Shown here: positions 1,611 through 19,848 of the stretch, in pieces
Layout: each line of letters opens with the position of its first letter
Numbering within the stretch: the first letter of the stretch is position 1
NCBI RefSeq assembly: GCF_000010625.1
Contig: NC_010296.1
Location: 5,400,001-5,432,000, forward strand
Direction: 5' to 3'
DNA length: 32,000 bases
From: Microcystis aeruginosa NIES-843
Lineage (GTDB): Bacteria; Cyanobacteriota; Cyanobacteriia; Cyanobacteriales; Microcystaceae
The notes under the pieces: model-generated
Databases searched by the model: none
What the model was told of the DNA's origin: nothing
What the model saw: only the letters and a program-made list of their open reading frames with translations
Made by a program: the position numbers and the translations under genes

Positions 1611-3005
1611 ATGGTGAAAAGGAATTATTTACCCTTGAAAACCACAGTTAAAGTCAGCACACAAACCCAATTACCCCTACATCTAGTTATCACCCATCCC
1701 CAGTATCGTTTTATCGATTTATTCGCGGGAATCGGTGGTTTTAGAATCGCTTTGGAGAAATTGGGAGGACGTTGTTTAGGCTATTCAGAAATCGATAAAC
1801 AGGCCATCCAAGTTTATCAACAAAATTTTATTAGCTATCTCAACAGCAATGAAATTGCTTTCGGAGATGTGAGTAAAATTAGCAATTTACCCGATAATCT
1901 CGATTTTATTGTCGGCGGCGTTCCCTGTCAACCTTGGTCGGTGGCGGGATGTTTACGGGGATTTGAGGATCCCCGGGGAAAACTCTGGTTTGATGTGATT
2001 AAATTAGTCCAGAAAAGTCAACCGAAAAGCTTTATTTTCGAGAATGTCAGTGGTTTAGCTAGTCCTCGCAATCGGGAGAATTTAGAGTTAATTATCGATG
2101 AATTAACCGGCTGTGGTTATCAAGTTTACTGGCAGTTATTAAATGCCTACGATTTTGGTTTACCCCAGAATCGCGAGAGAGTTTTTATCGTAGGAATTAG
2201 AAAAGATATAGACAACTATGAGCGGTTTAAATTTCCTTTACCTTTGGGTATCCATCCGAAGGTTTTGGATATTTTAGAAGACATCAAGAATATTCAACCG
2301 GTTAAGAAAGTCAAGTTATCTGCGGATACTTTATTTAATGGTTTTGTTCCTCCATCAAGAACTCGTTTTCAAAAAGAAGATGAATTAAATGACTTTTTTA
2401 TTTTTTCTGATTTAAGAAATGGCCACACAACTATTCATTCTTGGGATATTATCAAAACTACGGAACGACAAAAAAGTATCTGTTTAGCTTTGCTGAAATT
2501 AAGACGCAGTAAAAAGTATGGCGAAAAAGATGGTCATCCCGTGGCTTTTTCTACTTTTTTGGAAATTATACCCGACCTAAAAATCGAGGAACTAAATCAG
2601 TTAGTTTCTCTGGGGATTTGTTGGCAAACGCAGGAGGGTAAGTATGAATTTATTAACTCGAAAAATATGACGGGAATTAACGGCATTTATCGGATCATTT
2701 TACCGACGGCCGATATTATTCCTACCCTAACCGCTACGGGTGCTAAAGATTATATTGCTACTATTTCAATTACCGCTACTCATCCCCAAGAATACAAACA
2801 ATTGTTTTTAAAGAAAATCTATAAACCCAAAAAGTTTCGAGAAATTACTCCCCAAGATGCGCGTAAATTACAAGGATTCCCCGATAATTTTATCTATCAT
2901 CCACAGTCAGCTATCGCTAAAAAACAATTCGGAAATTCTGTTCCTATAACTGTAGTGCAAGCAGTAGCAAGAAATTTACTAGAAATAATTCGTCCCGATT
3001 ATTAG
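1611..3005 (+). CDS. DNA (cytosine-5)-methyltransferase
   Basis: 464-aa ORF with the C5-MTase motifs in canonical order: I FIDLFAGIGGF, IV GGVPCQPWS, VI FIFENVSGL, VIII QNRERVFIVG, TRD dipeptide region PTLTATG, IX REITPQDARKLQGFPDNF, X GNSVPITV. Confidence 0.92.
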   Translation: MVKRNYLPLKTTVKVSTQTQLPLHLVITHPQYRFIDLFAGIGGFRIALEKLGGRCLGYSEIDKQAIQVYQQNFISYLNSNEIAFGDVSKISNLPDNLDFIVGGVPCQPWSVAGCLRGFEDPRGKLWFDVIKLVQKSQPKSFIFENVSGLASPRNRENLELIIDELTGCGYQVYWQLLNAYDFGLPQNRERVFIVGIRKDIDNYERFKFPLPLGIHPKVLDILEDIKNIQPVKKVKLSADTLFNGFVPPSRTRFQKEDELNDFFIFSDLRNGHTTIHSWDIIKTTERQKSICLALLKLRRSKKYGEKDGHPVAFSTFLEIIPDLKIEELNQLVSLGICWQTQEGKYEFINSKNMTGINGIYRIILPTADIIPTLTATGAKDYIATISITATHPQEYKQLFLKKIYKPKKFREITPQDARKLQGFPDNFIYHPQSAIAKKQFGNSVPITVVQAVARNLLEIIRPDY

Positions 3006-3214
3006 ACTGCGGGATACTGACTCATATTAAAATATTTAAAGGCTTAAAAATCCAAGTTTTCGTTGTGGGGACTCCCTCGTCAGAAGTCAGTCATCAATAC
3101 CAAATTAAGTTATACTTCATCTTTATGAGAAAGTCTGTCAATTATCCTAATTGCTAAGGAGGTTAAAAATTGAGACATTTCCTAGTAAAAATCTAACTAC
3201 TTTAAATTGAAAAA

Positions 3215-4108
3215 ATGATCATGTTTAAACGATACGAAGCTGATGAGCAAGTTATATTTCATGGTGATTCTTTGCCGATTTTATCCAGTGAGATTGCCTC
3301 TAATTCTGTAGATCTAATTTTTCTCGATCCTCCCTATAATATAGGTAAGCACTTTGCCGATTTTTACGACAAATGGGAATCGGAAAATGATTATATAAAT
3401 TGGGCAAATCAAATTCTTGATCAGTGTCTTCGCATCTTGAAACCCCAGGGAACATTATATGTTATGGCCAGCACTCAAGCAATGCCTTACTTTGATCTTT
3501 ACTTAAGACAAAAAATGACGATTCTTAGTCGCATTATCTGGCATTATGATAGTTCAGGAGTACAAGCAACAAAATACTTTGGTTCGATGTATGAACCAAT
3601 ACTTCACTGTGTGAAAGATAAAAATAATTACACTTTTAATTCAAAGGATATTAAGATAGAAGCAAAAACCGGAGCAAAACGAAAACTAATTGATTATAGA
3701 AAAGCGATTCCGAGTCAATACAATACAGAGAAAGTACCGGGCAATGTCTGGTATTTCCCTAGGGTAAGATATCGCATGGATGAATACGAAAATCATCCCT
3801 CACAAAAACCTGAATCATTGCTAGAAAGAATTATTTTGGCCAGCACTGACAAGAGTGGAATTGTGCTTGATCCCTTTGCAGGAACTTTTACAGCTGCAGC
3901 TGTAGCTAAACGTTTGGGAAGAATTTCTATTAGTATAGAATCGCAAGAGGAGTATTTAAAAATTGGTCTTCGACGGATTCTCGGATGGCAAGAATACAAG
4001 GAAGAAAAGTTACTACCACCTCAAAAAAGCTATAGTAGAAAAAGCGAAAATAAACAAGAATCTAACTTTGTACAGGAGAGTCTTTTCGATGTCGATAGTC
4101 AAGCATGA
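3215..4108 (+). CDS. Beta-class amino DNA methyltransferase (N6-adenine favoured, N4-cytosine not excluded)
   Basis: 297-aa ORF. Catalytic motif IFLDPPYNIG lies near the N-terminus and AdoMet motif VLDPFAGTFTAAAVAKRLGR near the C-terminus. Motif IV before motif I is the beta-class order. Confidence 0.85.
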   Translation: MIMFKRYEADEQVIFHGDSLPILSSEIASNSVDLIFLDPPYNIGKHFADFYDKWESENDYINWANQILDQCLRILKPQGTLYVMASTQAMPYFDLYLRQKMTILSRIIWHYDSSGVQATKYFGSMYEPILHCVKDKNNYTFNSKDIKIEAKTGAKRKLIDYRKAIPSQYNTEKVPGNVWYFPRVRYRMDEYENHPSQKPESLLERIILASTDKSGIVLDPFAGTFTAAAVAKRLGRISISIESQEEYLKIGLRRILGWQEYKEEKLLPPQKSYSRKSENKQESNFVQESLFDVDSQA

Positions 4109-5168
4109 ATTCACCAAGATAATTATTAAAATTATCGATAATTACTTTCCCAATCAGGGAAATAGCATTTTAAATGCTAGTGAGTTATTGCAATATTTGA
4201 ACATTAAAACTAGAGCCGCTAATCGAGGTTCTAAATCCCGAGCAGGATTGGCTAACCATTATGCCATTTATGTTTTAGTGGAAGACTATATTAATAATGA
4301 GTTTCATCTTAAGGATGGATACGACGAGTATCAAGGCGCTCAGTATATGACACTTTTTCGCAGGCAAAGGGAGCTTCCTTTTGGCGATAAATTACAAAAT
4401 CATGCTCTCAATCATCGATTAAATCAGGAATTTAACAAGTATTTTCCCACTTTATCTTATCTGCCGATAATTAGAGATGTTAAAACCAATAGATACTGGA
4501 TTAATGAGAATTTAATTAAGTTTTCTCTAGAGGGTAATCAAGTTAATATTGCCCTGGTAATTATAGATATAATTGATGCCTATGTGCAAACAAGACAAAA
4601 AGCATTTAATCAATTTATCAGCTATTGTCAACAGATGATTGATATTCAACAGCAAGATCCCCAGAGAGCCATTGAATTTATTCGGAGTTTACTCAGACCA
4701 AACATTGATGCTAGAGTTTTTGAGATTGTCAGTTATGCAATTCTTAAAGAGTATTATGGGGAACGGAAAATATATTGGGGATGGTCGCCTGATCAGTTAA
4801 ACTCTGAATACTTACTTTTATATAAAACTGGTCGAACAAATGCCAATGACGGGGGGATAGATTTTGTCATGAAACCCCTAGGTCGATTTTTTCAAGTTAC
4901 GGAAACGATAGCTGCTGATAAATATTTTTTAGATATTGATAAAGTGCAAAAATATCCCATTACTTTTGTGGTTAAAACCGAGCAGACTTGCGAGGAAATT
5001 TTAGAAAAAGTTGCGGAGCAAGCTAAGATAAGATACAAGATCAGGGCAATTGTCGAAAGATATCTAGAATCGGTAGAGGAAGTGATCAATATTCCCGAAT
5101 TAATCAACCGTTTTGAGCGGGTTTTAGCTCAAGGTAAAGGAGGAGCGGTAATTGCAGAAATGGTTTGA
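4089..5168 (+). CDS. Candidate type II restriction endonuclease (Mrr-like PD-(D/E)xK core suspected)
   Basis: Track ORF 3963..5168 overlaps the MTase by 146 nt. The in-frame ATG at 4089 is preceded by AGGAG (4074..4078) and overlaps the MTase stop by 20 nt, the usual M-R coupling. The protein has FEIVSYAILKEYYG...NDGGIDFVMKP...FFQVTET, which resembles the FE...DGGID...Q.K core of Mrr-type nucleases. The function is otherwise inferred from position. Confidence 0.5.
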   Translation: MSIVKHEFTKIIIKIIDNYFPNQGNSILNASELLQYLNIKTRAANRGSKSRAGLANHYAIYVLVEDYINNEFHLKDGYDEYQGAQYMTLFRRQRELPFGDKLQNHALNHRLNQEFNKYFPTLSYLPIIRDVKTNRYWINENLIKFSLEGNQVNIALVIIDIIDAYVQTRQKAFNQFISYCQQMIDIQQQDPQRAIEFIRSLLRPNIDARVFEIVSYAILKEYYGERKIYWGWSPDQLNSEYLLLYKTGRTNANDGGIDFVMKPLGRFFQVTETIAADKYFLDIDKVQKYPITFVVKTEQTCEEILEKVAEQAKIRYKIRAIVERYLESVEEVINIPELINRFERVLAQGKGGAVIAEMV

Positions 5169-7920: not shown

Positions 7921-8952
7921 ATGATAGAATGGGCATCAGCGAAAGTAGTTTGTGAGCGAAGTGATCCGATGCAGTTCCAAATCCAGCCAGACAGTGAAAT
8001 ACCCGCCTCTAAGCAATTATTTGACCAAATTCGCTTCGCTATCGCCTCTCGTCAGTATCCCCCGGGCCATCGTTTACCTAGTACCCGTCAACTAGCTATG
8101 ATCACGGGATTACACCGTAATACGATAAGTAAAATTTATCAACAACTGGAAGACGATGGGTTAGTGGAATCCATAGCAGGTTCGGGGATTTATGTGAAGG
8201 CTCGCGGGCATGAAAACGATAATTTATTGGGTTCGCCCCTATTGGAACAAAATCCAGAAATAGGCCGACTAATTCGCCAGAGTTTGGCTGGTTTTCTCGC
8301 TCAAGGTTTAACTTTAGAGCAAATTCGCGAGTTATTACTGGCGGAAATCGATTGGCGATCGCAGTGTGGTTCTCAAGTTCTTGTCACCATTCCCCGTCAC
8401 GATTTGGGTGCAGGAAAACTAATGTTGAGAGAATTAGAGCAATCCCTCAAAATTCCCGTCCAATTAGTGGCAATGGAGGATTTAGCCCAAGTTTTAGCCA
8501 ATACTAAATCTGCCACTGTTGTCACCAGTCGCTATTTTATCAGTGTGGCGGAGGAAATTGCCGCTCCTTTTCACCTGCGAGTCATTCCCATCGATATCTA
8601 CGATTACAGCAAGGAATTGGCATTAATCAAAAAATTACCCACCGATAGCCGCTTGGGGATTGTCAGTATTAGCACCGGTATTATTAAGGTGGCCGAAATT
8701 TTAATTCATAGTTTACGGGGCGATGATTTATTAGTTATGTCTGCCCAAATTCATGAAACGGATAAGTTAAAAGTTTTAGCTCGAACTTCCCAGACAATTA
8801 TCAGTGATCAAGCGAGTTATACTTTAATTAAAAATCTGATTAATGAAGTGCGATCGGATTTAATTCGTCTGCCAGAAATTATCTGTAGTGATAATTATAT
8901 TGGGGATAAATCAATTCAATTGCTAAGACGAGAATTAGGATTAGGTGGTTAG
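7921..8952 (+). CDS. GntR-family transcriptional regulator, probably the cyanobacterial PlmA-type subfamily; the true start may be the ATG at 7969
   Basis: N-terminal winged-helix pattern IPASKQLFDQIRFAIASRQYPPGHRLPSTRQLAMITGLHRNTISKIYQQLEDDGLVESIAGSGIYV. The ~250-aa C-terminal domain is unlike the FadR/HutC/MocR effector domains I recognise. The PlmA assignment is from memory of that subfamily's size and phyletic range. Confidence 0.8.
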   Translation: MIEWASAKVVCERSDPMQFQIQPDSEIPASKQLFDQIRFAIASRQYPPGHRLPSTRQLAMITGLHRNTISKIYQQLEDDGLVESIAGSGIYVKARGHENDNLLGSPLLEQNPEIGRLIRQSLAGFLAQGLTLEQIRELLLAEIDWRSQCGSQVLVTIPRHDLGAGKLMLRELEQSLKIPVQLVAMEDLAQVLANTKSATVVTSRYFISVAEEIAAPFHLRVIPIDIYDYSKELALIKKLPTDSRLGIVSISTGIIKVAEILIHSLRGDDLLVMSAQIHETDKLKVLARTSQTIISDQASYTLIKNLINEVRSDLIRLPEIICSDNYIGDKSIQLLRRELGLGG

Positions 8953-9058
8953 AGGATAAGCTAGGACACATTTTAACCGCTAAATCTCTCCCAATCCCTT
9001 TACTGTTACCTCTTGCCTTATCTCAACAAGCAATTTAAGTAGGGAGGCACAATTATTT

Positions 9059-9123
9059 GTAGGATGGGTTAGCGGTAGCGTAACCCATGCTGGCGTTGGG
9101 TTTCATGCTTCAACCCAACCTAC
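9059..9123. repeat. Small nested-palindrome element (dispersed-repeat/MITE-like)
   Basis: gtagg-a-[gggtta gcggtagcg taaccc]-atgctggc-[gttgggtt tcatgcttc aacccaac]-ctac. Two internal hairpins are enclosed by the outer inverted arms gtagg/cctac. It is intergenic, with no ORF. Confidence 0.5.
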
Positions 9124-9329
9124 GTTCATCTTATATTTAATTCCACTCACCCACTTAAATGCGCGGGCGGCTGAACTTTAAAATTTATTTTAGTCTATGG
9201 TTACTATTGACAATAACTTAGAGCAAATCGAGAATAAAAGCGAAAAAAACTTTTAGGAAGTATTAAATTTTTAGTACAATGGCGAAAGAATAGGGACAAG
9301 CTCAATTTTTCACTCTCGAACGAGGCTAA

Positions 9330-10448
9330 ATGAAAAGTGCTGACTGTTTAACGGTATCCCCCGGGGAACCGCTTACCGATTGGCAAAAACTGGGATTAGA
9401 TTTGGTGGCTCGTTGGCAGGGACGAGATGTTATCCTAGCGATCGATCTTACCGGTAGTGTTAACTTTAATGATGAAGGACGCACGCGCCTTGGTCAAATT
9501 ATTCGCGATAGTTTAAAAAATAACGATTCGGTTTATTTAGTACCCTTTGCTGATAATGTCCAACCGATTGAAGAACCGATTTTAATTCGCGGAAGGGAAG
9601 ATATAGACGCGGTTTTAAAAGCGATTCCCTGGCAATCTAGCCAAAGTGCTAAAAATACCGATATTCAGCGCGCAGAATGGCACGTTTATCCCCGACTGGC
9701 ACGCTTAAATCAGTGTCGTTTAACTGCCAATCAAGCTATCAAACCCCAGTCGGTAGTTTGGATTACCGATGCACCCCTTTCTACCGCTGCGGGGATTACT
9801 TCCCAACAGTGGATAGAAACCCCAAAAAATAGCCCTTTTCGTCTTGCTAATTCTCCCGAAAGTTTGGAGAGACAAAACTGGCTTAATTCCCTACCAATTA
9901 ATCTAAGAACCCAAGAAATTACCGCCACTAACGGCAATAAATATAAACTATCAGTGGTCGATATTGCTCCCACAGCACAAGAGTTTTGCACTCCCGCACC
10001 GGGAGGACAGGAAACCTGTTTGATTAATTCTTATCTCTTGAGTCAGTTATGGTTGCCAGCATTGGCAATTACATTAATGGGAATTGGGGGAATAGTAGCG
10101 AGTATTTTGGGAATTCGTCATTGGTTGCTGTTAAATACTGCTTGGACTATTAAAGTCTCATCTAATGATGATGAGAATGAAATACAAAGATATACCCTAA
10201 AAACATCCCAAAGAATTAACATCGGTGGGGAAGGAGTTAATACCATTGATTGTCCGGGAGAAGAAACCCGTTGTTATTTAGAAAGACGCGGCAATCAGTT
10301 ATATCTGAAACCCAGTAAACAAGCAGAGATTTTTTATCGAGGTAATCAACTAACTCAGGAGGTGAAGATAGATAAAAATTACCTGACTTTAACCTATCAC
10401 CATAACCATCAAGATTTCGACCTACAAATTCAGATTAGGAAAAAATAA
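9330..10448 (+). CDS. vWA-domain membrane protein with a C-terminal beta-rich (weakly FHA-like) domain
   Basis: 372-aa ORF. DVILAIDLTGSVNF (MIDAS-like DxTxS), SVYLVPFADNV and VVWITDAPLS fit the vWA strand pattern (aa ~33-215). One TM helix, LWLPALAITLMGIGGIVASILGI (aa ~240-262). The C-terminal ~100 aa read RINIGGEG..IDCPG...CYLERRGNQLYLKP...IFYRGNQL, which is FHA-like in spacing but lacks the canonical Arg/Ser/His. Confidence 0.6.
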   Translation: MKSADCLTVSPGEPLTDWQKLGLDLVARWQGRDVILAIDLTGSVNFNDEGRTRLGQIIRDSLKNNDSVYLVPFADNVQPIEEPILIRGREDIDAVLKAIPWQSSQSAKNTDIQRAEWHVYPRLARLNQCRLTANQAIKPQSVVWITDAPLSTAAGITSQQWIETPKNSPFRLANSPESLERQNWLNSLPINLRTQEITATNGNKYKLSVVDIAPTAQEFCTPAPGGQETCLINSYLLSQLWLPALAITLMGIGGIVASILGIRHWLLLNTAWTIKVSSNDDENEIQRYTLKTSQRINIGGEGVNTIDCPGEETRCYLERRGNQLYLKPSKQAEIFYRGNQLTQEVKIDKNYLTLTYHHNHQDFDLQIQIRKK

Positions 10449-10466
10449 CTTCAGGAGATTTAAACC

Positions 10467-13400
10467 ATGGCTAACACCAGTCAAACCCGCGCTATCAAAC
10501 GGACAATTATCATCGGATTAGGTGGTACTGGTCGAGATGTGTTGATGAGAATTCGTCGCTTTATTATTGATAAATACGGGAAGTTATCTAACCTACCCGT
10601 TGTCAGTTTTGTTCATATTGACACAGATAAAAATGCTTTCAATGGTTCGGGTTTACCCACAGGAAATAGCTATCACGGAGAAGAAATTATTCTATCAGCT
10701 GCCGAAAGAGTATTCATTAATATGAATGCTCAGGATGTTAACAATCTCACCTATGAACTTGAACACCAAACCCTTTTTGAAAGTCCCTTTTCCCATATTG
10801 AAAGCTGGTTAGACCCAAGGCTAAAAAAACAAATAACTTCCATTGAAAATGGTGCGGGGGGTATTCGTCCCGTCGGTCGTTTAGCTTTCTTCCATAACTA
10901 TCAAAAAATTCAAGAGGCAATTGAAGCAGCGGAAAGACGAACTTCTGGTCATGAATCCTTTATGTTTAGCGGTAAAGTTAATGGTCAAAGTTTTAATGTC
11001 CAAGAGGGTTTAAATGTCTTTGTTGTCGGTTCTTTGTGTGGGGGAACTGGTAGCGGTATTTTCCTCGATGTGGCCTACACTTTGCGTCATATTTTACAAC
11101 AAACCGCCGAATATACATCCTTTGGTTATTTGGTAATTAGTCCTAAACTTTATGGTGATGGTGCAATTATGAGAGCTAATACCTATGCAGCTTTGAAAGA
11201 GTTAGATCATTATACCAATGAAAGTAATTCCTTTCAAGTCTGTTATGATAAACAAAATTTCGTCAACATCGATGAAAAACGTTCTCCTTTTGATTTTGCC
11301 TACTTAGTTTCTAATCGCACTGCGGGAGATTACCGGATTAATAACAAAGGTAAATTATGTAATGTCATTGCTTACAAGATTTTCTTGGATTTTGCCGATG
11401 AGTTATCTCCTCGCATCAAAGGCAATCGGGATAACTATAAAAACTCGATGATTAGTCCAGATAATCATCCTTTTCAGATGTGTCAAGGTTATATGTCCTT
11501 TGGACTAGCGAGGATTTATTTTACTCGCGACCGAATTGTGCAGATTGGTCTCAATCGTTTTACGCTCAAGTTAATTAAATTTTGGTTAGAGGGATACGGT
11601 CAAAGTCCCAGTGGACAAGAGTTATTAAGTAAGTTCCTAGCTAATTGGAGTACCCAAAGTAATAAGGATTATTTTACTGCCAGATTGGAAGAAGCAACCC
11701 TAGAGAATAATAAAACTTTTTCTAAGACTTTAACCTCTTGGAAAAATTCCCTAGAGGAAGAAATATCTAATAGTCAAGATTTGGAGAATTTACCCCAAAC
11801 CGTCAAGCAATCCCTAGAAAAAGAGTTTCGCAAAGTACAGGGGGGAGAAACAGATAGCAGTCGCGGAATCTGGTTAACTCTGACCCAACAAACTCAACCT
11901 AAATTAATCGAAAAATTTAAGTCAGATATTGACCAATTTTTGGAGATTCTTCTTAATCCTGATAGCTTAGAATTTTCTTTGGAAAATAGCCTATCTTTTT
12001 TGGTCGCTTTACAAGTACAGATTAATACCTACAAGGGTAATCTAGAGGAATTATCTCAGGATAATAAAGGGTTTCATTCCTCGGAAAAAATTGATAACAT
12101 TTGGCGAAATGTTAAACAAACTCTCGAAGATATAAACGGGAAAAAGTCTGTCTTCAAGATGTTCAGTAAAAATGCCAATAGCGAGAAAATCAAAGCTGAG
12201 TTAAGAGACTACGTTCAAAGCGGACAAAAATTAATTCAGCATAACTTTAATTTCAGCATCAATGGGGAATCCAGAAAGATTGTTGAAGCGATTCTCAAGC
12301 ATATTTCTAGTCGAATGCTGCAGATACAACAACTGAAAGAAACCCTATATCAGCTAATCACAGAATACGATAAATACGAACAGGAGTTAATGCAGTTAAA
12401 TCTCGACGAGATGACTGGGGAAGCTATTTTCCCAGAGGAGAATATTGATAACTGTATCCCTGACAGTAACTCCCGAACTCAATACATTTCCGTTAGCCAA
12501 AAAGTCACCAATAATTTAGGCTATAATACTTCCCTATTCAGTTTATTTAGCCAATCTTTTGTTATTGATAATGAAACTCTCAAAGAGAACCTAACAGCAA
12601 CAATCGAGAAACAGTTTCAATCAGTAAGCACTAATAAAATTGATGCAGTAATTAAGCGATTTATGGGTCAATATAAACCCCATGATTTTCCTGAACGTTT
12701 GGCGCAAATTTTGCGAGAAGCTGATTTAATGTTACCGATAAATGTTAATGATGCTTACTATCGCTTGCATCCAGATAAAAAATTACTAATTGGGACTAAG
12801 GACGATAATTCACCCACCATGCAAAGATTTATGAAGACTATTGAATCTGATTTAAATATTAATCGGGGGACTTCTTTTGAATCAATTCAAACGGACGAAG
12901 AAATCCTAATTACCTACGAGTTTGGTGGGTTTCCCCTAAGAATCATTACTGATTTATCTGGGTTACAAAAAATCTATCAAGACCAAAAGAGAATCAGCAT
13001 TTTACATAATGATTACAGGATAGATTTTGCTGATATTATCCCACCACCTGCCAAATTAATTGAGGAATTAGAGTTTATTTTCTATCCCGCAATTGCTCTC
13101 GGTTTACTAGAATACGATGAGGAAGATGATACTTATCAATTAGTCATCGAAGGCGATTTATTTAACAATAAGTCCATCATTGACATTAGCGGTAATTGGC
13201 GACTTGCTTTAGAACAATTTGCTTCTCGTAAGGACATGATTAATGCTTTGCAGGTACTGCTTAATCAGGCAAAAAATGAGATTTTGGCTAATCCTCCTCT
13301 ATTATTTACTAACGAGGGTGATTATTTCCAGAAGGTCAGCTATTTTGTCAACAATGTCAAAAATTTACCCGACCATCACCCCAATTATCGCTACAAAGAT

Positions 13401-13616
13401 AAGGTAGTTGGACAAGATGGAAATCATATACAGGAGGCAAAAGAAGGAATTATCACCCGTTTTGTTAATCAACTGAAAATGGAACTAGAAAAACGTGCTG
13501 CTGAACAGAAAAAACTCGAAAAACAACAGCAAAAGCAACAAACTTTACTGGGAACAAATAATAACAGTAGTCAACCCAGTTTACCCGCAGAGATTAGCAC
13601 TGCTGATGAATTGTAA
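10467..13616 (+). CDS. Tubulin/FtsZ-superfamily GTPase-like protein with a ~750-aa non-tubulin extension
   Basis: 1049-aa ORF; AGGAG sits ~10 nt upstream. IIIGLGGTGRDV (T1-like), ENGAGGIRPVGRLAFF (T3-like) and VFVVGSLCGGTGSGIFLDVAY (aa 192-197 GGTGSG, matching the tubulin signature GGGTGSG). The remainder is helical or coiled, with a Gln-rich tract and a disordered tail ending in ADEL. Confidence 0.75.
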   Translation: MANTSQTRAIKRTIIIGLGGTGRDVLMRIRRFIIDKYGKLSNLPVVSFVHIDTDKNAFNGSGLPTGNSYHGEEIILSAAERVFINMNAQDVNNLTYELEHQTLFESPFSHIESWLDPRLKKQITSIENGAGGIRPVGRLAFFHNYQKIQEAIEAAERRTSGHESFMFSGKVNGQSFNVQEGLNVFVVGSLCGGTGSGIFLDVAYTLRHILQQTAEYTSFGYLVISPKLYGDGAIMRANTYAALKELDHYTNESNSFQVCYDKQNFVNIDEKRSPFDFAYLVSNRTAGDYRINNKGKLCNVIAYKIFLDFADELSPRIKGNRDNYKNSMISPDNHPFQMCQGYMSFGLARIYFTRDRIVQIGLNRFTLKLIKFWLEGYGQSPSGQELLSKFLANWSTQSNKDYFTARLEEATLENNKTFSKTLTSWKNSLEEEISNSQDLENLPQTVKQSLEKEFRKVQGGETDSSRGIWLTLTQQTQPKLIEKFKSDIDQFLEILLNPDSLEFSLENSLSFLVALQVQINTYKGNLEELSQDNKGFHSSEKIDNIWRNVKQTLEDINGKKSVFKMFSKNANSEKIKAELRDYVQSGQKLIQHNFNFSINGESRKIVEAILKHISSRMLQIQQLKETLYQLITEYDKYEQELMQLNLDEMTGEAIFPEENIDNCIPDSNSRTQYISVSQKVTNNLGYNTSLFSLFSQSFVIDNETLKENLTATIEKQFQSVSTNKIDAVIKRFMGQYKPHDFPERLAQILREADLMLPINVNDAYYRLHPDKKLLIGTKDDNSPTMQRFMKTIESDLNINRGTSFESIQTDEEILITYEFGGFPLRIITDLSGLQKIYQDQKRISILHNDYRIDFADIIPPPAKLIEELEFIFYPAIALGLLEYDEEDDTYQLVIEGDLFNNKSIIDISGNWRLALEQFASRKDMINALQVLLNQAKNEILANPPLLFTNEGDYFQKVSYFVNNVKNLPDHHPNYRYKDKVVGQDGNHIQEAKEGIITRFVNQLKMELEKRAAEQKKLEKQQQKQQTLLGTNNNSSQPSLPAEISTADEL

Positions 13617-13633
13617 AATTAATCAATCTTAAT

Positions 13634-13663
13634 AATGTTTCCCCAGCTATCTGAGGAAACATT
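13634..13663 (+). other. Intercistronic stem-loop (9-bp stem, 12-nt loop) between the tubulin-like and MotA-like genes
   Basis: aatgtttcc (13634..13642) pairs perfectly with ggaaacatt (13655..13663). No U-tract follows, so it is probably not a strong intrinsic terminator. It could be a processing or stability element. Confidence 0.3.
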
Positions 13664-13713
13664 CACCCCCAACTCTCTCTATCAACCACAATTCGAGGTA
13701 TCCAATAACTATC

Positions 13714-15375
13714 ATGGCATTATTTAACCTTTTTCCTCCCTATCTGATTGTTTTAACTCTAGTCTTGGTTATTTTTCCCACCGTCTTAGCTGTGGGAATC
13801 CGGATGACTCTCTATAAATATCTCCAAGATTCAACTGTAAAAGTCAAGGGTTTAATTCCGGGAACAAGTCTCAAGGGTTCACCTAAAATTATTTCTAATC
13901 TAGAGAATAGATTTAAGATAGCCAGTAGTCAACTAGATGATGTTAATACCGCAGCTTTGGTGGATGGTTTATACCATGAAGAAAAATTTACTTTCATGTC
14001 TAAATCCCTCAGCTGCGAGAAATGGGATTATTTTGTGAGAGTGTTACCCAATCTCCTCCTCGCTTTTGGTTTGTTGGGAACTTTCTTCGGAATTACTCTC
14101 AATCTGACGGGAATCAGCACACTTATCGATATCAATAATGTCGATATGCAAAGTTTGGGAGAAAAGCTCAAAACTCCCCTAGAAAGTATGGGGATTGCTT
14201 TTATCACTAGCTTAATTGGTTTAGCTTGTAGTTCTTTACTGACTGTGATTAACTTAATCTTTAACACCAACCTTGCTAAAGTAAATCTAATTAGTTCCCT
14301 AGAAGACTATTTAGATAACATCTTGCAGCCGACTGTAGAAGGGAATAGTCGCTTGGATAAAGCGGTTAATCGCATGGTGGATACACAGAAAGCATTTCTG
14401 ACTAACTTTCATAGCGAGGTGACGAGAGTATTAGAATCTTCTTTAGAGAAAGTTGCTAAAGAAATTGCTGATGGTAATCAGGAAACCGCTAAGTTAGTCA
14501 CCCAGGTTTGTGAAAGATTAACTGAAACTGCGGGAACCTTATCTACCGGTGCGACGACTTTTCAGCGTTCAGCTTTTGAACTTAACGAGCAAGTACCAAT
14601 TATCACGCAAGCAAACCGAGAGTTTACACAATCCTCTCAGGAACTAAAAAATAGTGTACTGCTTTTTAAACAAGCATCAGAGTTAATTGAAAAAAGTAAC
14701 TTCTCTGGTAATATCGAAAGGTTTACCGCTAGTTTAGCAGAAACCCAAGGAAGATTCTCTCAATCCACTGCAATACTAGAGCAGAATATCGGGGAGATTA
14801 TCAGCAGTAATAAAAGAGCTAACGATTTAGCAGAACAAGTGTATTTAAATATCCAAGAATCTTCTCAAAAATTACAAAATAGTGCGCTAGGTTTTCTGGA
14901 AGCTTCCGAAAAAATCGAAAGTAGTCAATTTGCCAATAAGTTAGTGCAAGCAACCGCAGATTTAATGACTGCTCATCAACAGTTTGCCGATTCTACTACA
15001 GATTTAAACCAATCAACTCAATCTCTAGCTTCTTTAACTCAAGACTTCCACCGTTCAATGACAACTATGGTTGAGTTAGGAATAAAAATTACTGACTTGA
15101 ATCAAAAATCTGAGACAATCCTAGAACAAAATCAGCAACGCTCAGTCACCGAACAAGAAAAGTTATCTAACATCCAGGGAGAATTAGTAAAATTAATCGA
15201 AACCGTGAAAACCTATCAAGACAGTTTTAACTCCGAGTCGAAACAATTAGGAAACCAACTTATCAATAGTCTCGAGGAAAAACTCCCCCAAACCTCCGAT
15301 AAAATCCTCACTGCTTCCCATGGCATTGAGCGCTCTAGTAATAATCTCGATCACCGAACAAGAAAAGTTATCTAA
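13714..15375 (+). CDS. MotA/TolQ/ExbB-family channel protein with a long helical tail (ZorA-like); N-terminal fragment of a gene interrupted by a frameshifting duplication
   Basis: 553-aa ORF. N-terminal TM helix (YLIVLTLVLVIFPTVLAVGI), then LLLAFGLLGTFFGITLNL and MGIAFITSLIGLACSSLLTVINLIF, matching the conserved GLLGT..G and A..T..GL helices of MotA/ExbB/TolQ. The rest is helical repeat sequence. The ORF ends at a TAA (15373..15375) 22 nt past the junction of a perfect 205-bp duplication. Confidence 0.75.
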   Translation: MALFNLFPPYLIVLTLVLVIFPTVLAVGIRMTLYKYLQDSTVKVKGLIPGTSLKGSPKIISNLENRFKIASSQLDDVNTAALVDGLYHEEKFTFMSKSLSCEKWDYFVRVLPNLLLAFGLLGTFFGITLNLTGISTLIDINNVDMQSLGEKLKTPLESMGIAFITSLIGLACSSLLTVINLIFNTNLAKVNLISSLEDYLDNILQPTVEGNSRLDKAVNRMVDTQKAFLTNFHSEVTRVLESSLEKVAKEIADGNQETAKLVTQVCERLTETAGTLSTGATTFQRSAFELNEQVPIITQANREFTQSSQELKNSVLLFKQASELIEKSNFSGNIERFTASLAETQGRFSQSTAILEQNIGEIISSNKRANDLAEQVYLNIQESSQKLQNSALGFLEASEKIESSQFANKLVQATADLMTAHQQFADSTTDLNQSTQSLASLTQDFHRSMTTMVELGIKITDLNQKSETILEQNQQRSVTEQEKLSNIQGELVKLIETVKTYQDSFNSESKQLGNQLINSLEEKLPQTSDKILTASHGIERSSNNLDHRTRKVI

Positions 15376-16679
15376 CATCCAGGGAGAATTAGTAAAATTA
15401 ATCGAAACCGTGAAAACCTATCAAGACAGTTTTAACTCCGAGTCGAAACAATTAGGAAACCAACTTATCAATAGTCTCGAGGAAAAACTCCCCCAAACCT
15501 CCGATAAAATCCTCACTGCTTCCCATGGCATTGAGCGCTCTAGTAATAATCTCGATGTGACTAATGCTAACTTGTCTCAGTTAATTGATACAGTGACAGA
15601 GCAACTTACTCAAGTCTCTGAGACAATCCTAGAACAAAATCAGCAACGCTTAGTCACCGAACAAGAAAAGTTATCTAACATCCAGGGAGAATTAGTAAAA
15701 TTAATCGAAACCGTGAAAACCTATCAAGACAGCTTTAACTCCGAGTCGAAACAATTAGGCAATCAACTTATCAATCGTCTTGAGCAAAGACTCTCCCAAA
15801 CCTCCGATAAAATTCTCACTGCTTCCCATGGGATTGAGCGCTCTAGTAATAATCCAGAGGTGACTAATGCTAACTTGTCTGAGTTAATTGATACAGTGAC
15901 AGAGCAAGTTACTCAAGTCAAGGAAGGCTTACAGTCTGAGTTAAACCAATCAACTCAATCTCTAGCTTCTTTAACTCAAGACTTCCAGCGTTCAATGACA
16001 ACTATGGTTGAGTTAGGAATAAAAATTACTGACTTGAATCAAAAATCTGAGACAATCCTAGAACAAAATCAGCAACGCTTAGTCACCGAACAAGAAAAGT
16101 TATCTAACATCCAGGGAGAATTAGTAAAATTAATCGAAACTGTGAAAACCTATCAAGACAGTTTTAACTCCGAGTCGAAACAATTAGGAAACCAACTTAT
16201 CAATCGTCTTGAGCAAAGACTCTCCCAAACCTCCGATACAATTCTCACTGCTTCCCATGGGATTGAGCGCTCTAGTAATAATCTCGATGTGACTAATGCT
16301 AACCTGTCTCAGTTAATTGATACAGTGACAGAGCAAGTTACTCAAGTCTCTGAGAAAATCCTAGAACAGAATCAGCAACGCTCAGTCACCGAACAAGAAA
16401 AGTTATCTAACATCCAAGGAGAATTAGTAAAATTAATCGAAACTGTGAAAACCTATCAAGACAGTTTTAACTCCGAGTCGAAACAATTAGGAAACCAACT
16501 TATCAATAGTCTCGAGCAAAGACTCTCCCAAACCTCCGATAAAATCCTCACTGCTTCCAATGCAGTTGAGCGCTCTAGTAATAATCTCGATGTGACTAAT
16601 GCTAACCTGTCTCAGTTAATTGATACAGTGACAGAGCAAGTTACTCAAGTCAAGGAAAGCTTACAGTCTGAGTTAAACC
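15004..16679 (+). repeat. Near-identical 732-nt (244-codon) super-repeat, two copies, each made of a 429-nt and a 303-nt subunit
   Basis: ttaaaccaatcaactcaatctctagc recurs at 15004 and 15941 (spacing 937 = 732+205), and ttaaacc recurs at 16673 (spacing 732). The caccgaacaagaaaag subunit starts at 15147, 15352, 15655, 16084 and 16387 (later spacings 429 and 303). Confidence 0.9.
15147..15556 (+). repeat. Perfect 205-bp tandem duplication (15147..15351 and 15352..15556)
   Basis: Both copies read caccgaacaagaaaagttatctaacatccaggg...gcgctctagtaataatctcgat with no mismatch that I could find. 205 is not a multiple of 3. Confidence 0.9.
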
Positions 16680-17257
16680 TTTTAAGCAATAACTTAGGGA
16701 TGGTAGTTGATGATAAATTAACTAAGAACTCAGAACAATTAAAAGCAGTTTCCCAATCTATTGAGAAAACAGCCAATCAATTTGGCAGCCTTAAATCAGA
16801 TTTTTCTCAAGTAATTAACGCGGTGAACACCAACACCAGTCAATTAACCGCTAACTTAGAATCTTTGCGAGATAAGTTAGAGAAAGTTATCGCTAAGGAA
16901 AATAAATCGAATCAGAAAATGATTGAACACATCTATGGAGAAATTCAAAAATGTTTAGCAGAACTGGAGAAAATTAACGATATGCGTTCTGACTTTTCTA
17001 ATTTAAATGATAAGATAGAAAAACTTTTTGAGACAATCCCTAATCCTGCTCAAAAAAATGTTCAGGATGACATTTATAAGTTAAATAAGAAGTTGGAAGA
17101 ACTTAAAAAACTTTTTGAGACAATCCCTAATCCTACTAAAAAAGATGTTCAGTCTGACTTTTCTAACTTAAAGGATAAGATAGAAAAACTTTGTGAGACA
17201 ATCCCTAATCCTACTCAAAAAGATGTTCTGGATGACATTAACACCCTATTTGAATAA
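15320..17257 (+). CDS. C-terminal tail fragment of the same MotA/ZorA-like gene (+1 frame relative to 13714..15375)
   Basis: 645-aa ORF. Its first 11 codons (MALSALVIISI) are an out-of-frame reading of duplication copy 1. From 15352 it reads the same repeat sequence as the upstream ORF (TEQEKLSNIQGELVKLIETVKTYQDSF...). Removing one 205-bp copy fuses 13714..17257 into a single 1112-codon ORF (3544-205 = 3339 nt = 1112 codons plus stop). Confidence 0.7.
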   Translation: MALSALVIISITEQEKLSNIQGELVKLIETVKTYQDSFNSESKQLGNQLINSLEEKLPQTSDKILTASHGIERSSNNLDVTNANLSQLIDTVTEQLTQVSETILEQNQQRLVTEQEKLSNIQGELVKLIETVKTYQDSFNSESKQLGNQLINRLEQRLSQTSDKILTASHGIERSSNNPEVTNANLSELIDTVTEQVTQVKEGLQSELNQSTQSLASLTQDFQRSMTTMVELGIKITDLNQKSETILEQNQQRLVTEQEKLSNIQGELVKLIETVKTYQDSFNSESKQLGNQLINRLEQRLSQTSDTILTASHGIERSSNNLDVTNANLSQLIDTVTEQVTQVSEKILEQNQQRSVTEQEKLSNIQGELVKLIETVKTYQDSFNSESKQLGNQLINSLEQRLSQTSDKILTASNAVERSSNNLDVTNANLSQLIDTVTEQVTQVKESLQSELNLLSNNLGMVVDDKLTKNSEQLKAVSQSIEKTANQFGSLKSDFSQVINAVNTNTSQLTANLESLRDKLEKVIAKENKSNQKMIEHIYGEIQKCLAELEKINDMRSDFSNLNDKIEKLFETIPNPAQKNVQDDIYKLNKKLEELKKLFETIPNPTKKDVQSDFSNLKDKIEKLCETIPNPTQKDVLDDINTLFE

Positions 17258-17279
17258 CTTCACCAACATATAAGTAACT

Positions 17280-17921
17280 ATGTCTAGACGTACCTACTAC
17301 CGAGATGAAGATAAATCGGTGGATGTTTATCCCGCATTTACCGATTTAATGTCCAATGCTTTCATGATTCTGAGTTTATTTCTCCTCTTGGCACTTTTTC
17401 AGTCCTATAATCTCATCAGCAAACTGGAGGAAGCTAACCGAAAACTGCAAACAGCAACCCCGATAGTTATCGATGAAAAATCAGGAAAATTCAAATTTCA
17501 GTCGGGAAGTGCTGAATTAAACCCTGCTTTAAAAACCTATATTCGTCAGCGCATTATTCCCGCTATCGAAACCATTACCAAAGACAGAGAAATCGACTTT
17601 ATTCAAGTAATTGGACACACCGATGGACAGGGAATACAAAAGACAAGTAATCTCGATAAAAATATCGAATCGGTTGCCAGCAGAAAACAATCTGTTAAAA
17701 TGCTAGTACCCGGTTCTAACACTGATTTAGGATTAATGCGAGCTTTAGCAGTAGTGCAAGAAATCGAAAACACAGGTAAACTCAAAAACGTCAAATTTCG
17801 AGCTTTTTCCGCAGGACAGTTATACCTCCCATCGGGTAACTTAGCTGCGGTTAATCGTGACGCAGATGCAAGCAGACGCAGAATTGAAATCCGTTTTATT
17901 CCCCCTGGTAGAAAACAATAA
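17280..17921 (+). CDS. MotB/OmpA-like stator partner (ZorB-like): N-terminal TM helix with a conserved Asp, plus an OmpA-type peptidoglycan-binding domain
   Basis: 213-aa ORF starting 22 nt after the tail gene. YPAFTDLMSNAFMILSLFLLLALF carries Asp22 (gat, 17343..17345) at the position of the protonatable MotB Asp. The C-terminal part reads VIGHTDGQG...DLGLMRALAVVQEI...RRRIEIRF, the OmpA-like pattern. Confidence 0.8.
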   Translation: MSRRTYYRDEDKSVDVYPAFTDLMSNAFMILSLFLLLALFQSYNLISKLEEANRKLQTATPIVIDEKSGKFKFQSGSAELNPALKTYIRQRIIPAIETITKDREIDFIQVIGHTDGQGIQKTSNLDKNIESVASRKQSVKMLVPGSNTDLGLMRALAVVQEIENTGKLKNVKFRAFSAGQLYLPSGNLAAVNRDADASRRRIEIRFIPPGRKQ

Positions 17922-18000
17922 GACAAAAAAATTCTAGAAATTTGTTTTTTTATCTTTTGCTTGTTACACTGAGGAAAGAACGAAATTCAAATCAATATCT

Positions 18001-18234
18001 ATGGAACAAAACACTTTAGAGGGGACTTGGGAAGAAATTTTACAGCATAGTGCTAAATTAGCAGGTCAGCGAGTGAGATTGACCATTCTACCTAATCAAT
18101 CTTCCAATTCTTCCACTCCAGAAACCCTAGACCAAAAATTAAAAGGAAGAGTTGGACGAGTTTATTTTCAGCCATCAGATTTATCTGAGCGAGTAGAAGA
18201 AGTTTTTACAAATATTTTAGATGATAAAGACTAA
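18001..18234 (+). CDS. Putative antitoxin of the downstream PIN toxin
   Basis: 77-aa ORF ending 14 nt before the PIN gene. I recognise no DNA-binding motif, so the call is positional only. Confidence 0.45.
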   Translation: MEQNTLEGTWEEILQHSAKLAGQRVRLTILPNQSSNSSTPETLDQKLKGRVGRVYFQPSDLSERVEEVFTNILDDKD

Positions 18235-18248
18235 TCAGCATTACATCA

Positions 18249-18656
18249 ATGACTCTTTGCGACGCTTCTCCACTTATTGCCTTAATTAATGAAGCTGATA
18301 AAAATCATCAGCGTTGTGTTGACATTTTATCTTCGCTATCGGCCCCCCTTGTCACGACTTGCGCTTGTTTTACCGAAGCAATGTATTTATTGCGTCGATA
18401 TGGTGGTTGGTTCGCACAACAAGAATTATGGGGTTATGTGGTAGATGAAATACTGGTAATACACCATCATAATTCAGATGAACTAAAAAGAATGGAAACC
18501 TTAATGATACAATATCAAGATGTTCCTATGGATTTAGCAGATGCTTCTTTAGTAGCCATGGCTGAAGTTCTTAATCAAAAACAAATATTCACTCTCGATA
18601 GCGATTTCTATATTTACCGACGGTATGGAAATCAACCTTTTGAGGTTGTACCTTAA
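18249..18656 (+). CDS. PIN-domain ribonuclease toxin (VapC-like)
   Basis: 135-aa ORF with four acidic PIN positions in the expected spacing: MTLCDASPLIAL, CFTEAMYLL, DLADASLVAMAE, FTLDSDF. Confidence 0.85.
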   Translation: MTLCDASPLIALINEADKNHQRCVDILSSLSAPLVTTCACFTEAMYLLRRYGGWFAQQELWGYVVDEILVIHHHNSDELKRMETLMIQYQDVPMDLADASLVAMAEVLNQKQIFTLDSDFYIYRRYGNQPFEVVP

Positions 18657-18670
18657 TTATTTTTCATTCC

Positions 18671-19231
18671 CTAGAGGGTGACATCCTCGTATAAATCCCG
18701 AAAAGATGCCTTCAGATTAATACTCTGCAAACTAAAACTTTCTTCCTGATAGGTTTGCAGAATCCATAAACCCTGTTCACCCCGTCGAAAAGTTTCCACT
18801 CGTTGGTGTTTACTATTCACTAAGACATATTCCTCTAAACTTTCTAGAGTTTGATAATCATTAAATTTATCACCCCTGTCAAAAGCTTCTGTGGAATCGG
18901 AGAGAACTTCGATAATCAATTTAGGAAAACTTTTGTAGGTAGCGGTTTCTCTATCTCTGTTATCGCAGGTGACAATAATATCAGGATAATAAAAGTGATT
19001 GCGTTTCTCTAATCTGACTTTCACATCGGCAAAATAAACCCGACAATCGGAACCCCGCAAATGATTACGAATGAGAAAAGTGAAATTGAGTCCGATAATA
19101 TTATGAGTATCCGTTGTCCCTGCCATGGCGTAAACTTGTCCATCGATATATTCATGTTTAATGGGACTTTTTTCTTCAAACTGAAGATATTCTTCTGGAG
19201 TGAGATTATTATAGTTAGATAAAGCAATCAT
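18671..19231 (-). CDS. Uma2-family (DUF820) PD-(D/E)xK endonuclease, copy 1
   Basis: 186-aa ORF. EEYLQFEEKSPIKHEYIDGQVYAMAGTTDTHN...YFADVKVRL...YPDIIVTCD...PKLIIEVLSDST...DRGDKFNDYQTL..LEEYVLV is the typical Uma2 pattern. Confidence 0.85.
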   Translation of the reverse strand: MIALSNYNNLTPEEYLQFEEKSPIKHEYIDGQVYAMAGTTDTHNIIGLNFTFLIRNHLRGSDCRVYFADVKVRLEKRNHFYYPDIIVTCDNRDRETATYKSFPKLIIEVLSDSTEAFDRGDKFNDYQTLESLEEYVLVNSKHQRVETFRRGEQGLWILQTYQEESFSLQSINLKASFRDLYEDVTL

Positions 19232-19257
19232 GGGTTTAATCGTTGAAGGAGATTTTC

Positions 19258-19848
19258 TTAAGTACTTTCGGGAGTATCATTAACCGTTTCTAGGGTGACA
19301 TCCTCGTATAAATCCCGAAAAGATGCCGTCAGATTAATACTCTGTAAACTAAAACTTTCTTGCTGATAGGTTTGCAGAATCCATAAACCCTGTTCACCCC
19401 GTCGAAAAGTTTCTACTCGTTGGTGTTTACTATTCACTAAGACATATTCCTCTAAACTTTCTAGAGTTTGATAATCATTAAATTTATCACCCCTGTCAAA
19501 AGCTTCTGTAGAATCGGAGAGAACTTCGATAATCAATTTAGGAAAACTTTTGTAGGTAGCGGTTTCTCTATCTCTGTCATCGCAGGTGACAATAATATCA
19601 GGATAATAAAAGTGATTGCGCTTCTCTAATCTGACTTTCACATCGGCAAAATAAACCCGACAATCGGAACCCCGCAAATGATTACGAATAATTGTGTATA
19701 TATTCCCCGAAACAATATTATGAGTATCCGTCGTTCCTGCCATGGCGTAAACTTGTCCATCGATATATTCATGTTTAATGGGACTTTTTTCTTCAAACTG
19801 AAGATATTCTTCTGGAGTGAGATTATTATAGTTAGATAAAGCAATCAT
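19258..19848 (-). CDS. Uma2-family (DUF820) PD-(D/E)xK endonuclease, copy 2 (tandem paralog)
   Basis: 196-aa ORF nearly identical to copy 1, offset by 617 bp, except for an 8-codon replaced patch and a 10-aa C-terminal extension. Confidence 0.85.
   Translation of the reverse strand: MIALSNYNNLTPEEYLQFEEKSPIKHEYIDGQVYAMAGTTDTHNIVSGNIYTIIRNHLRGSDCRVYFADVKVRLEKRNHFYYPDIIVTCDDRDRETATYKSFPKLIIEVLSDSTEAFDRGDKFNDYQTLESLEEYVLVNSKHQRVETFRRGEQGLWILQTYQQESFSLQSINLTASFRDLYEDVTLETVNDTPEST

Follow-up and report, generated by a model that had tools for sequence, protein, structure and literature searches.

In the genome of Microcystis aeruginosa NIES-843, a gene for a ZorA/MotA-like membrane channel protein is split into two overlapping reading frames, and the question raised by this locus is whether the split is a genuine mutation, a functional arrangement or an error of the reference sequence. 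The locus lies in a stretch of 32,000 nt (NC_010296.1, positions 5,400,001 to 5,432,000 of the forward strand; hereafter the window, whose own numbering is used throughout). The gene is interrupted by a perfect 205-bp tandem duplication within its coding sequence, which we regard as probably real, evolutionarily very recent and restricted to NIES-843, as a lineage or as a culture. The likeliest reading is an ordinary knock-out mutation of a known kind that arose recently in this strain.

Direct string comparison of positions 15147-15351 with positions 15352-15556 (205 nt each) gives 0 mismatches, so that the initial annotation, which had called the two copies identical as far as could be read, overlooked no difference. 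Tandem Repeats Finder (TRF), run on the window, returns the same feature with a period of 205, 2.0 copies, 100% matches and a score of 822. A chance origin of two identical copies of this length is impossible. Identity at period 205 spans 15146-15556 (411 nt), leaving a microhomology of exactly 1 nt (T) at the novel junction, where the end of the duplicated segment (X) is joined to its own start. In the window the string CTCGATCACCG that marks the junction is found at 15346 and nowhere else, and the k-mer of the duplication junction is AATAATCTCGATCACCGAACAAG. The duplication sits inside a natural array of coiled-coil units of ~101 aa (303 nt), each composed of X (205 nt) and a segment Y (98 nt). 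Start-to-start spacings along this array are 205, 303, 429 and 303 nt, the value of 205 being that of the new pair, and both the uniqueness of the junction and its position out of register with the natural units, as first described, are borne out. Since the natural units are only 76-96% identical to the reference copy, the perfect 205-nt pair constitutes a separate and much younger layer.

Because 205 is 3n+1, the reading frame shifts at the junction and meets a stop seven codons later. The upstream product (ORF1) consists of 546 native residues followed by HRTRKVI (the translation across the junction reads ...NNLD/HRTRKVI and then stops), while the remaining tail is read in the +1 frame (ORF2), the first 10 residues of which (MALSALVIIS) are out-of-frame sequence. 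Deletion of one copy yields a 1112-aa ORF starting at 13714. The upstream stop at 15373-15375, the +1 frame at 15320..17257 and the 1112 codons obtained after deletion had all been given in the initial annotation and were reproduced here. With two or more copies translation always ends at residue 553, and only the one-copy state is in frame, because the second copy, read in the shifted frame, contains a TAA; a return to frame with 4 or 7 copies is ruled out by the same codon. MAE_58780 (BAG05700.1) is contained within ORF1. RefSeq lists the halves as two distinct proteins (553 and 645 aa), each under the name ‘methyl-accepting chemotaxis protein’ (MCP); no MCP family is found among the Pfam and NCBIfam matches of ORF1 and ORF2, and the name is without support.

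The orthologue in M. viridis NIES-102 (contig L001, 6640-9978) is a single ORF of 1112 aa. It aligns without gaps to the NIES-843 sequence from which one copy has been removed, with 36 mismatches over 3339 nt, only one of them after nt 1611. Other Microcystis genomes likewise carry single ORFs (738, 734, 662 and 514 aa), and the frame change is not conserved. Protein searches returned ~210 homologues from other assemblies, either single ORFs or contig-end fragments that lack the junction; complete single-ORF homologues span 689-1176 aa, with 738 aa the commonest length. Apart from one contig (L020) discussed below, neither junction peptide (HRTRKVI or SALVIISITEQEK) occurs outside NIES-843 among the ~210 homologues. 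At the nucleotide level, the junction string is absent from contigs L001-L010 and the junction 31-mer from the contigs of the JGI metagenomes, in which the sole match to a junction 20-mer is an unrelated high-GC sequence; a 97-aa protein query centered on the junction gave 3 candidates only and was uninformative.

An intact and collinear orthologue in NIES-102, together with a junction that is missing elsewhere, indicates that the duplication is derived and strain-specific, and the downstream ORF, which has not decayed, indicates that the event is recent. Compared with the single first X unit of NIES-102 (X1), both copies of X show 4 differences, and compared with each of the other tabulated X-type units they show 7-12; they carry the NIES-843-type variants of unit 1, and the extra copy thus came from the strain’s own unit 1. 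The comparison with related strains that had been proposed with the initial annotation therefore finds the gene single and intact in NIES-102, with the junction confined to NIES-843 apart from L020. Tail length (encoded by 15146-17239 in the window) differs greatly among strains, because the 101-aa units and the short C-terminal repeats with ETIPNP vary in number (proteins P0001-P0212), and the same gene carries further lesions in other strains (P0187, P0189, the PCC 9807 fragment P0211, and P0207). Together, these lesions and the variation in tail length suggest that the gene is dispensable and often remodelled.

As to the origin of the duplication, unequal crossover between natural units had been dismissed from the outset, and correctly so: such an exchange keeps the register and cannot produce a junction between the end and the start of X. 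The microhomology of a single nt and the break with the 303-nt register point instead to illegitimate slippage. Slippage or template switching during replication, by which the end of X would be joined illegitimately to its start, is the likeliest origin. Segment Y, which follows the second copy, is bracketed by a perfect 8-nt inverted repeat and may form a hairpin next to the end point of the duplication (the single-stranded DNA fold of 15545-15668 has -14.7 kcal/mol, with z=-2.2 against shuffled controls); a polymerase stalled at this hairpin, at the end of X, could conceivably have triggered the event. Small minus-strand hairpins are found at every Y-to-X boundary (15132-15152, 15640-15660, 16069-16089 and 16372-16392). 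Two other origins of the junction, ligation at restriction sites (GTSAC, GATC) and in-register recombination at ‘VT’ codons, were rejected because neither reproduces the observed sequence.

The identity of the gene as MotA/ZorA-like holds at the level of profile hidden Markov models (HMMs) (PADLOC ZorA at E=1e-15, with ZorB on the next gene). Seven PADLOC ZorA models match the N-terminal domain of ORF1 (best, ZorA1 PDLC00597, E=1.2e-15, residues 106-203), and three hydrophobic segments were recognized in ORF1 with 19-residue windows, starting at residues ~1-17, 107-116 and 158-167. The same domain has no Pfam match at E<=0.01. Sequence searches of the PDB gave coiled-coil noise only, with no match to solved ZorA structures, and an AlphaFold model built on a shallow alignment (pLDDT 38.8) was too poor to use. 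In the restored protein ~900 residues follow the third transmembrane (TM) segment, and the helical tail, as found in ORF2, has matches to tail regions of ZorA and to coiled-coil families of a general kind. ORF1 retains the motor domain with approximately the first 340 residues of the tail (roughly its first third), and loses the distal 566 residues including the tail tip. In Escherichia coli ZorA, deletions of the beginning, the middle or the tip of the tail preserved assembly of the ZorAB motor and abolished defence (PMC11946911). By analogy, the channel complex in NIES-843 may still assemble with its ZorB-like partner in a system that is probably inactive, and the allele is probably null.

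One sequence outside NIES-843 has the same junction peptide. A protein of 549 aa (P0076) ends in it, and its contig (L020; GCA_002196445.1, AJUU01001746.1) contains a perfect 205-nt x2 repeat with the end points seen in NIES-843, with a unit of which 9/205 positions deviate from that of NIES-843. Elsewhere L020 is NIES-298 sequence, with 100.000% identity over 5086 nt to the NIES-298 contig L024 (BEYQ01000011.1). In L024 and in the Logan contigs L025 and L026, the NIES-298 genotype has one copy and one repeat unit, and the 734-aa gene is intact and the same in all three; L027, which comes from another run, agrees with L024 over its whole extent. The left end of L020 falls inside a ~110-nt patch that is hyper-divergent between NIES-298 and NIES-843 and includes a 6-nt indel, and its right end lies 29 nt past the second copy, ~31 nt before NIES-298 departs from NIES-843, while de novo contigs of the NIES-298 genotype continue through both of these points. 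When NIES-298 reads from the single copy are aligned to the NIES-843 reference, each of its two copies attracts them, and both copies in L020 would thus come out identical and with NIES-298 single nucleotide polymorphisms. Probably, then, L020 is a propagated artefact, a consensus of NIES-298 reads on the NIES-843 reference, with a small chance left for a genuine recurrence. An independent recurrence and identity by descent combined with concerted evolution were both rejected, L020 being 100% identical to NIES-298 and its contig ends falling where the similarity to NIES-843 breaks down. Deletion of Y (98 nt) from an X-Y-X-Y array was also rejected, being impossible in a genotype whose other assemblies, as far as examined, show one X and one repeat unit. 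Within the divergent patch (~10190-10260, in the C-terminal part of the gene for the 372-aa protein upstream) NIES-843 and NIES-298 show up to 17 differences per 50 nt plus the 6-nt indel, and around it they are ~96-97% identical.

Several observations weigh against a genuine and private loss-of-function mutation. Were the duplication in L020 real, the event could not be called private and unique, and the loss of function is argued by analogy with a defence system of which this locus is not a canonical member. For NIES-843, the junction was seen in one assembly, the reference itself. That genome (5,842,795 nt in the record) was determined by Sanger whole-genome shotgun sequencing of 2.6-kb plasmid inserts and 34-kb bacterial artificial chromosome (BAC) ends, and the Phrap assembly of ~6.5 genome equivalents was edited by eye and checked by BAC insert size (PMC2779907); coverage was thus modest (~6.5x), of DNA propagated in E. 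coli. Logan contigs from eight public runs (L011-L013, L004, L007-L010) are 100% identical to NIES-843 on either side of the array and stop precisely at 15033 and 16628, the boundaries of the repeats at k=31; SRR3140609, SRR3140646, SRR3140802, SRR3140621, SRR28374909 and SRR32951892 are runs with contigs identical to NIES-843. A k=31 de Bruijn simulation reproduces both ends and leaves a junction-specific unitig of only 59 nt, so that the Logan contigs are silent on the junction; short-read assemblers cannot cross this array. Exact look-ups of the 553- and 645-aa split products matched no other contig. The coverage, the cloning in E. coli, the array and the look-ups would fit an artefact that entered the 2007 reference during assembly, cloning or finishing, with one copy and an intact 1112-aa gene in the living strain. 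We consider such an artefact unlikely, since a mis-join of true reads or of an assembly graph cannot create a novel junction with 1 nt of homology, and since a single Sanger read exceeds 410 nt and would span the whole structure (PMC2779907). Both copies are also exact and correctly flanked by unit-1 sequence, and the remaining sizeable genes of the window are intact with no frameshifts among them, as expected of an assembly that is not indel-ridden.

A real duplication need not be a simple knock-out. Recombination or slippage between the two identical copies could allow precise reversion, and the 205-bp duplication might recur at a hot spot, perhaps directed by the hairpin of the 98-nt segment, and collapse by recombination, thereby toggling the ZorAB-like motor and the FtsZl1-type GTPase encoded beside it. 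The result would be phase variation with a large unit, switching a ZorAB-like/FtsZl1 envelope system between its off and on states. Tandem duplications are a recognized route to phase variation, ‘homologous recombination of tandem duplications’ being listed among the routes to localized hypermutation (PMC4235727). The 8-nt perfect inverted repeat around Y, which folds better than shuffled sequence, is consistent with such a device, as is L020 at face value: a perfect pair with the same end points, in its own sequence (9/205 different), on a contig otherwise 100% NIES-298 whose other assemblies are one-copy, would amount to variation within a clone. However, the ends of L020 are those expected when reads are aligned to NIES-843 as the reference, L024, L025 and L026 all have one copy and the intact gene (with L027 matching as far as it is present), no other junction-bearing sequence appears among the ~210 proteins or in the JGI metagenome contigs, and the folding statistics of the hairpin are weak. 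Nothing that would indicate programmed switching was found, and a recurrent, structure-directed duplication that arises and is lost again at a measurable rate in clonal cultures of NIES-843 and NIES-298 seems to us quite improbable. Most improbable of all is a functional split, in which a short-tailed channel (ORF1) and a separate soluble tail (ORF2) cooperate, or in which a +1 ribosomal frameshift within the overlap (15251-15375) yields a fusion of ~1180 aa. ORF2 is fully open over 645 aa and near-identical to the NIES-102 sequence, RefSeq lists both halves as proteins and not as a pseudogene, and an AGA AAA G in the overlap is a place where tRNA-Lys could in principle slip by +1. Yet the youth of the mutation simply explains an intact ORF2, orthologues are single ORFs in which the split is not conserved, and no known stimulator of frameshifting is evident. 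The ATG at 15320 is preceded by CTCACTGCTTCCC, in which there is no Shine-Dalgarno-like motif, and no promoter-like site was found near it, which speaks against the separately translated tail fragment that the initial annotation had allowed for. Among the four causes it had offered, slippage stands as the proposed mechanism and a recent knock-out agrees with the derived and young state of the allele, whereas an artefact is unlikely and an ON/OFF state is unsupported. We thus favour a recent duplication that broke the gene in NIES-843 (features are collected in Table 1).

Table 1. Coordinates of the duplication, the split gene and the associated genes in the window.
Feature	Position	Strand	Remark
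Copy 1 of duplicated segment X (205 nt)	15147..15351	+	Inside the first natural 303-nt unit of the tail-coding region
Copy 2 of duplicated segment X (205 nt)	15352..15556	+	String identity, TRF
Novel junction CTCGA/T/CACCG, end of X to start of X, 1 nt microhomology	15346..15356	+	
Natural array of ~101-aa (303-nt) coiled-coil units containing the duplication	15146..16685	+	Spacing, TRF period 303
Segment Y with the two arms of a perfect 8-nt inverted repeat, GTGACTAA (15557-15564) and TTAGTCAC (15650-15657)	15557..15657	+	
ORF1, cut-short ZorA/MotA-like protein, 553 aa (WP_231859676.1)	13714..15375	+	Stop TAA at 15373-15375
ORF2, remaining tail in the +1 frame, 645 aa (WP_231859677.1)	15320..17257	+	
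ZorB/MotB-like partner, 213 aa, intact	17280..17921	+	PADLOC ZorB1, E=9.2e-10
FtsZl1-type tubulin-like GTPase, 1049 aa, intact, directly upstream (BAG05699.1)	10467..13616	+	Pfam Tubulin_2
372-aa membrane protein, first gene of the putative operon	9330..10448	+	vWA/MIDAS-like motif AIDLTGS, by eye

The broken gene belongs to a conserved Microcystis cluster (9330-17921) that encodes a putative vWA membrane protein, an FtsZl1/Tubulin_2 GTPase and the ZorA-like and ZorB-like proteins. The ZorB-like protein has one TM helix, preceded by an FTDLM motif with its Asp, and an OmpA-like domain that matches Pfam OmpA at E=9.8e-5 (23.1 bits, below the curated cut-off of 27.2). The GTPase matches Pfam PF13809 (Tubulin_2) at E=8.1e-101 over residues 14-370. 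In the 372-aa protein a MIDAS-like motif (DxTxS) was recognized by eye, and there is no Pfam, NCBIfam or PADLOC match. No PADLOC match to ZorC, D, E, F or G was found in the neighbours at 7921-13616 or 18249-18656; given this and the tubulin-like neighbour, the locus is not a canonical Zorya system, and is a ZorAB-like motor embedded in an FtsZl1 operon. In NIES-102 the gene for the 372-aa protein is itself split in two (L001, 2251-3375), the pieces coding for 176 and 196 aa, and the cluster has an IS605 OrfB/TnpB gene downstream of it; the lesions in this region thus differ from strain to strain.

The resemblance to the anti-phage system Zorya (Hu et al. 2025, PMC11946911) lies in the membrane motor. 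As in ZorA, an N-terminal membrane domain matched by ZorA HMMs precedes a very long alpha-helical tail, and as in ZorB, the adjacent small protein combines a TM helix, an Asp motif and an OmpA-like domain with matches to ZorB HMMs. Unlike Zorya, the locus has no ZorC/D, ZorE or ZorF/G genes and is flanked by the FtsZl1 tubulin-like GTPase and the putative vWA membrane protein, and the Microcystis tail is built of 101-aa repeats whose number varies among strains. In the FtsZl1 operons described by Makarova and Koonin (2010, PMC2875224), a family that includes a cyanobacterial clade and for which membrane remodelling is only predicted, a Tubulin_2/FtsZl1 protein with a coiled-coil region likewise stands beside OmpA-family and other membrane proteins, and also vWA proteins, of which the 372-aa protein here is a tentative example, but a MotA/ZorA-like partner was not recognized in that paper. 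In the literature, we found no mention of a ZorAB-type motor coupled to a tubulin-like GTPase in place of the Zorya effectors, and nothing relevant on MAE_58780, the neighbouring locus tags or the AJUU accession.

The mutation itself has a precedent in the type 3 capsule gene cap3A of pneumococcus, in which spontaneous tandem duplications inside the ORF switch the gene off and revert precisely. As in phase variation by tandem duplication, the NIES-843 allele is a perfect head-to-tail intragenic copy in the size range of tens to hundreds of bp, its length is not a multiple of three, and loss of one copy restores the gene. It differs in having been seen once, in one reference genome, with neither recurrence nor both states observed when L020 is discounted. 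It differs from cap3A also in that the gene, in a cyanobacterium, encodes part of a membrane motor and not a capsule enzyme.

NIES-843 is the type strain and the most used reference for Microcystis, and its broken zorA-like allele misleads annotation; the duplication also appears to have been propagated into at least one other public assembly. The main practical value of the finding is as a caveat for users of this reference. The strain is probably also a natural knock-out for studies of the conserved operon of a tubulin-like GTPase and a ZorAB-like motor.

Two further contigs, both from very fragmented assemblies, join pieces of the Microcystis repeat to unrelated DNA (L021 231-466, GCA_031546785.1; L023 from ~2645 onward, GCA_031544815.1) and are probably chimeric. 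Of the foreign parts, one has an AT-rich bacterial ORF next to a phosphate-transporter-like gene, and the other a reverse-transcriptase-type motif, recognized by eye on the reverse strand. Elsewhere in the window, the cluster is followed by a small ORF and a PIN/VapC-like protein of 135 aa (~18000-18656), likely a toxin-antitoxin pair, and by two tandem minus-strand genes of the Uma2 family (18671-19848) that match the PADLOC candidate PDC-S03. Near the start of the window, positions 1611-5168 encode two methylases, one for C5 of cytosine and one of the N4/N6 type, together with an unassigned ORF of 401 aa, and are probably a restriction-modification cluster.

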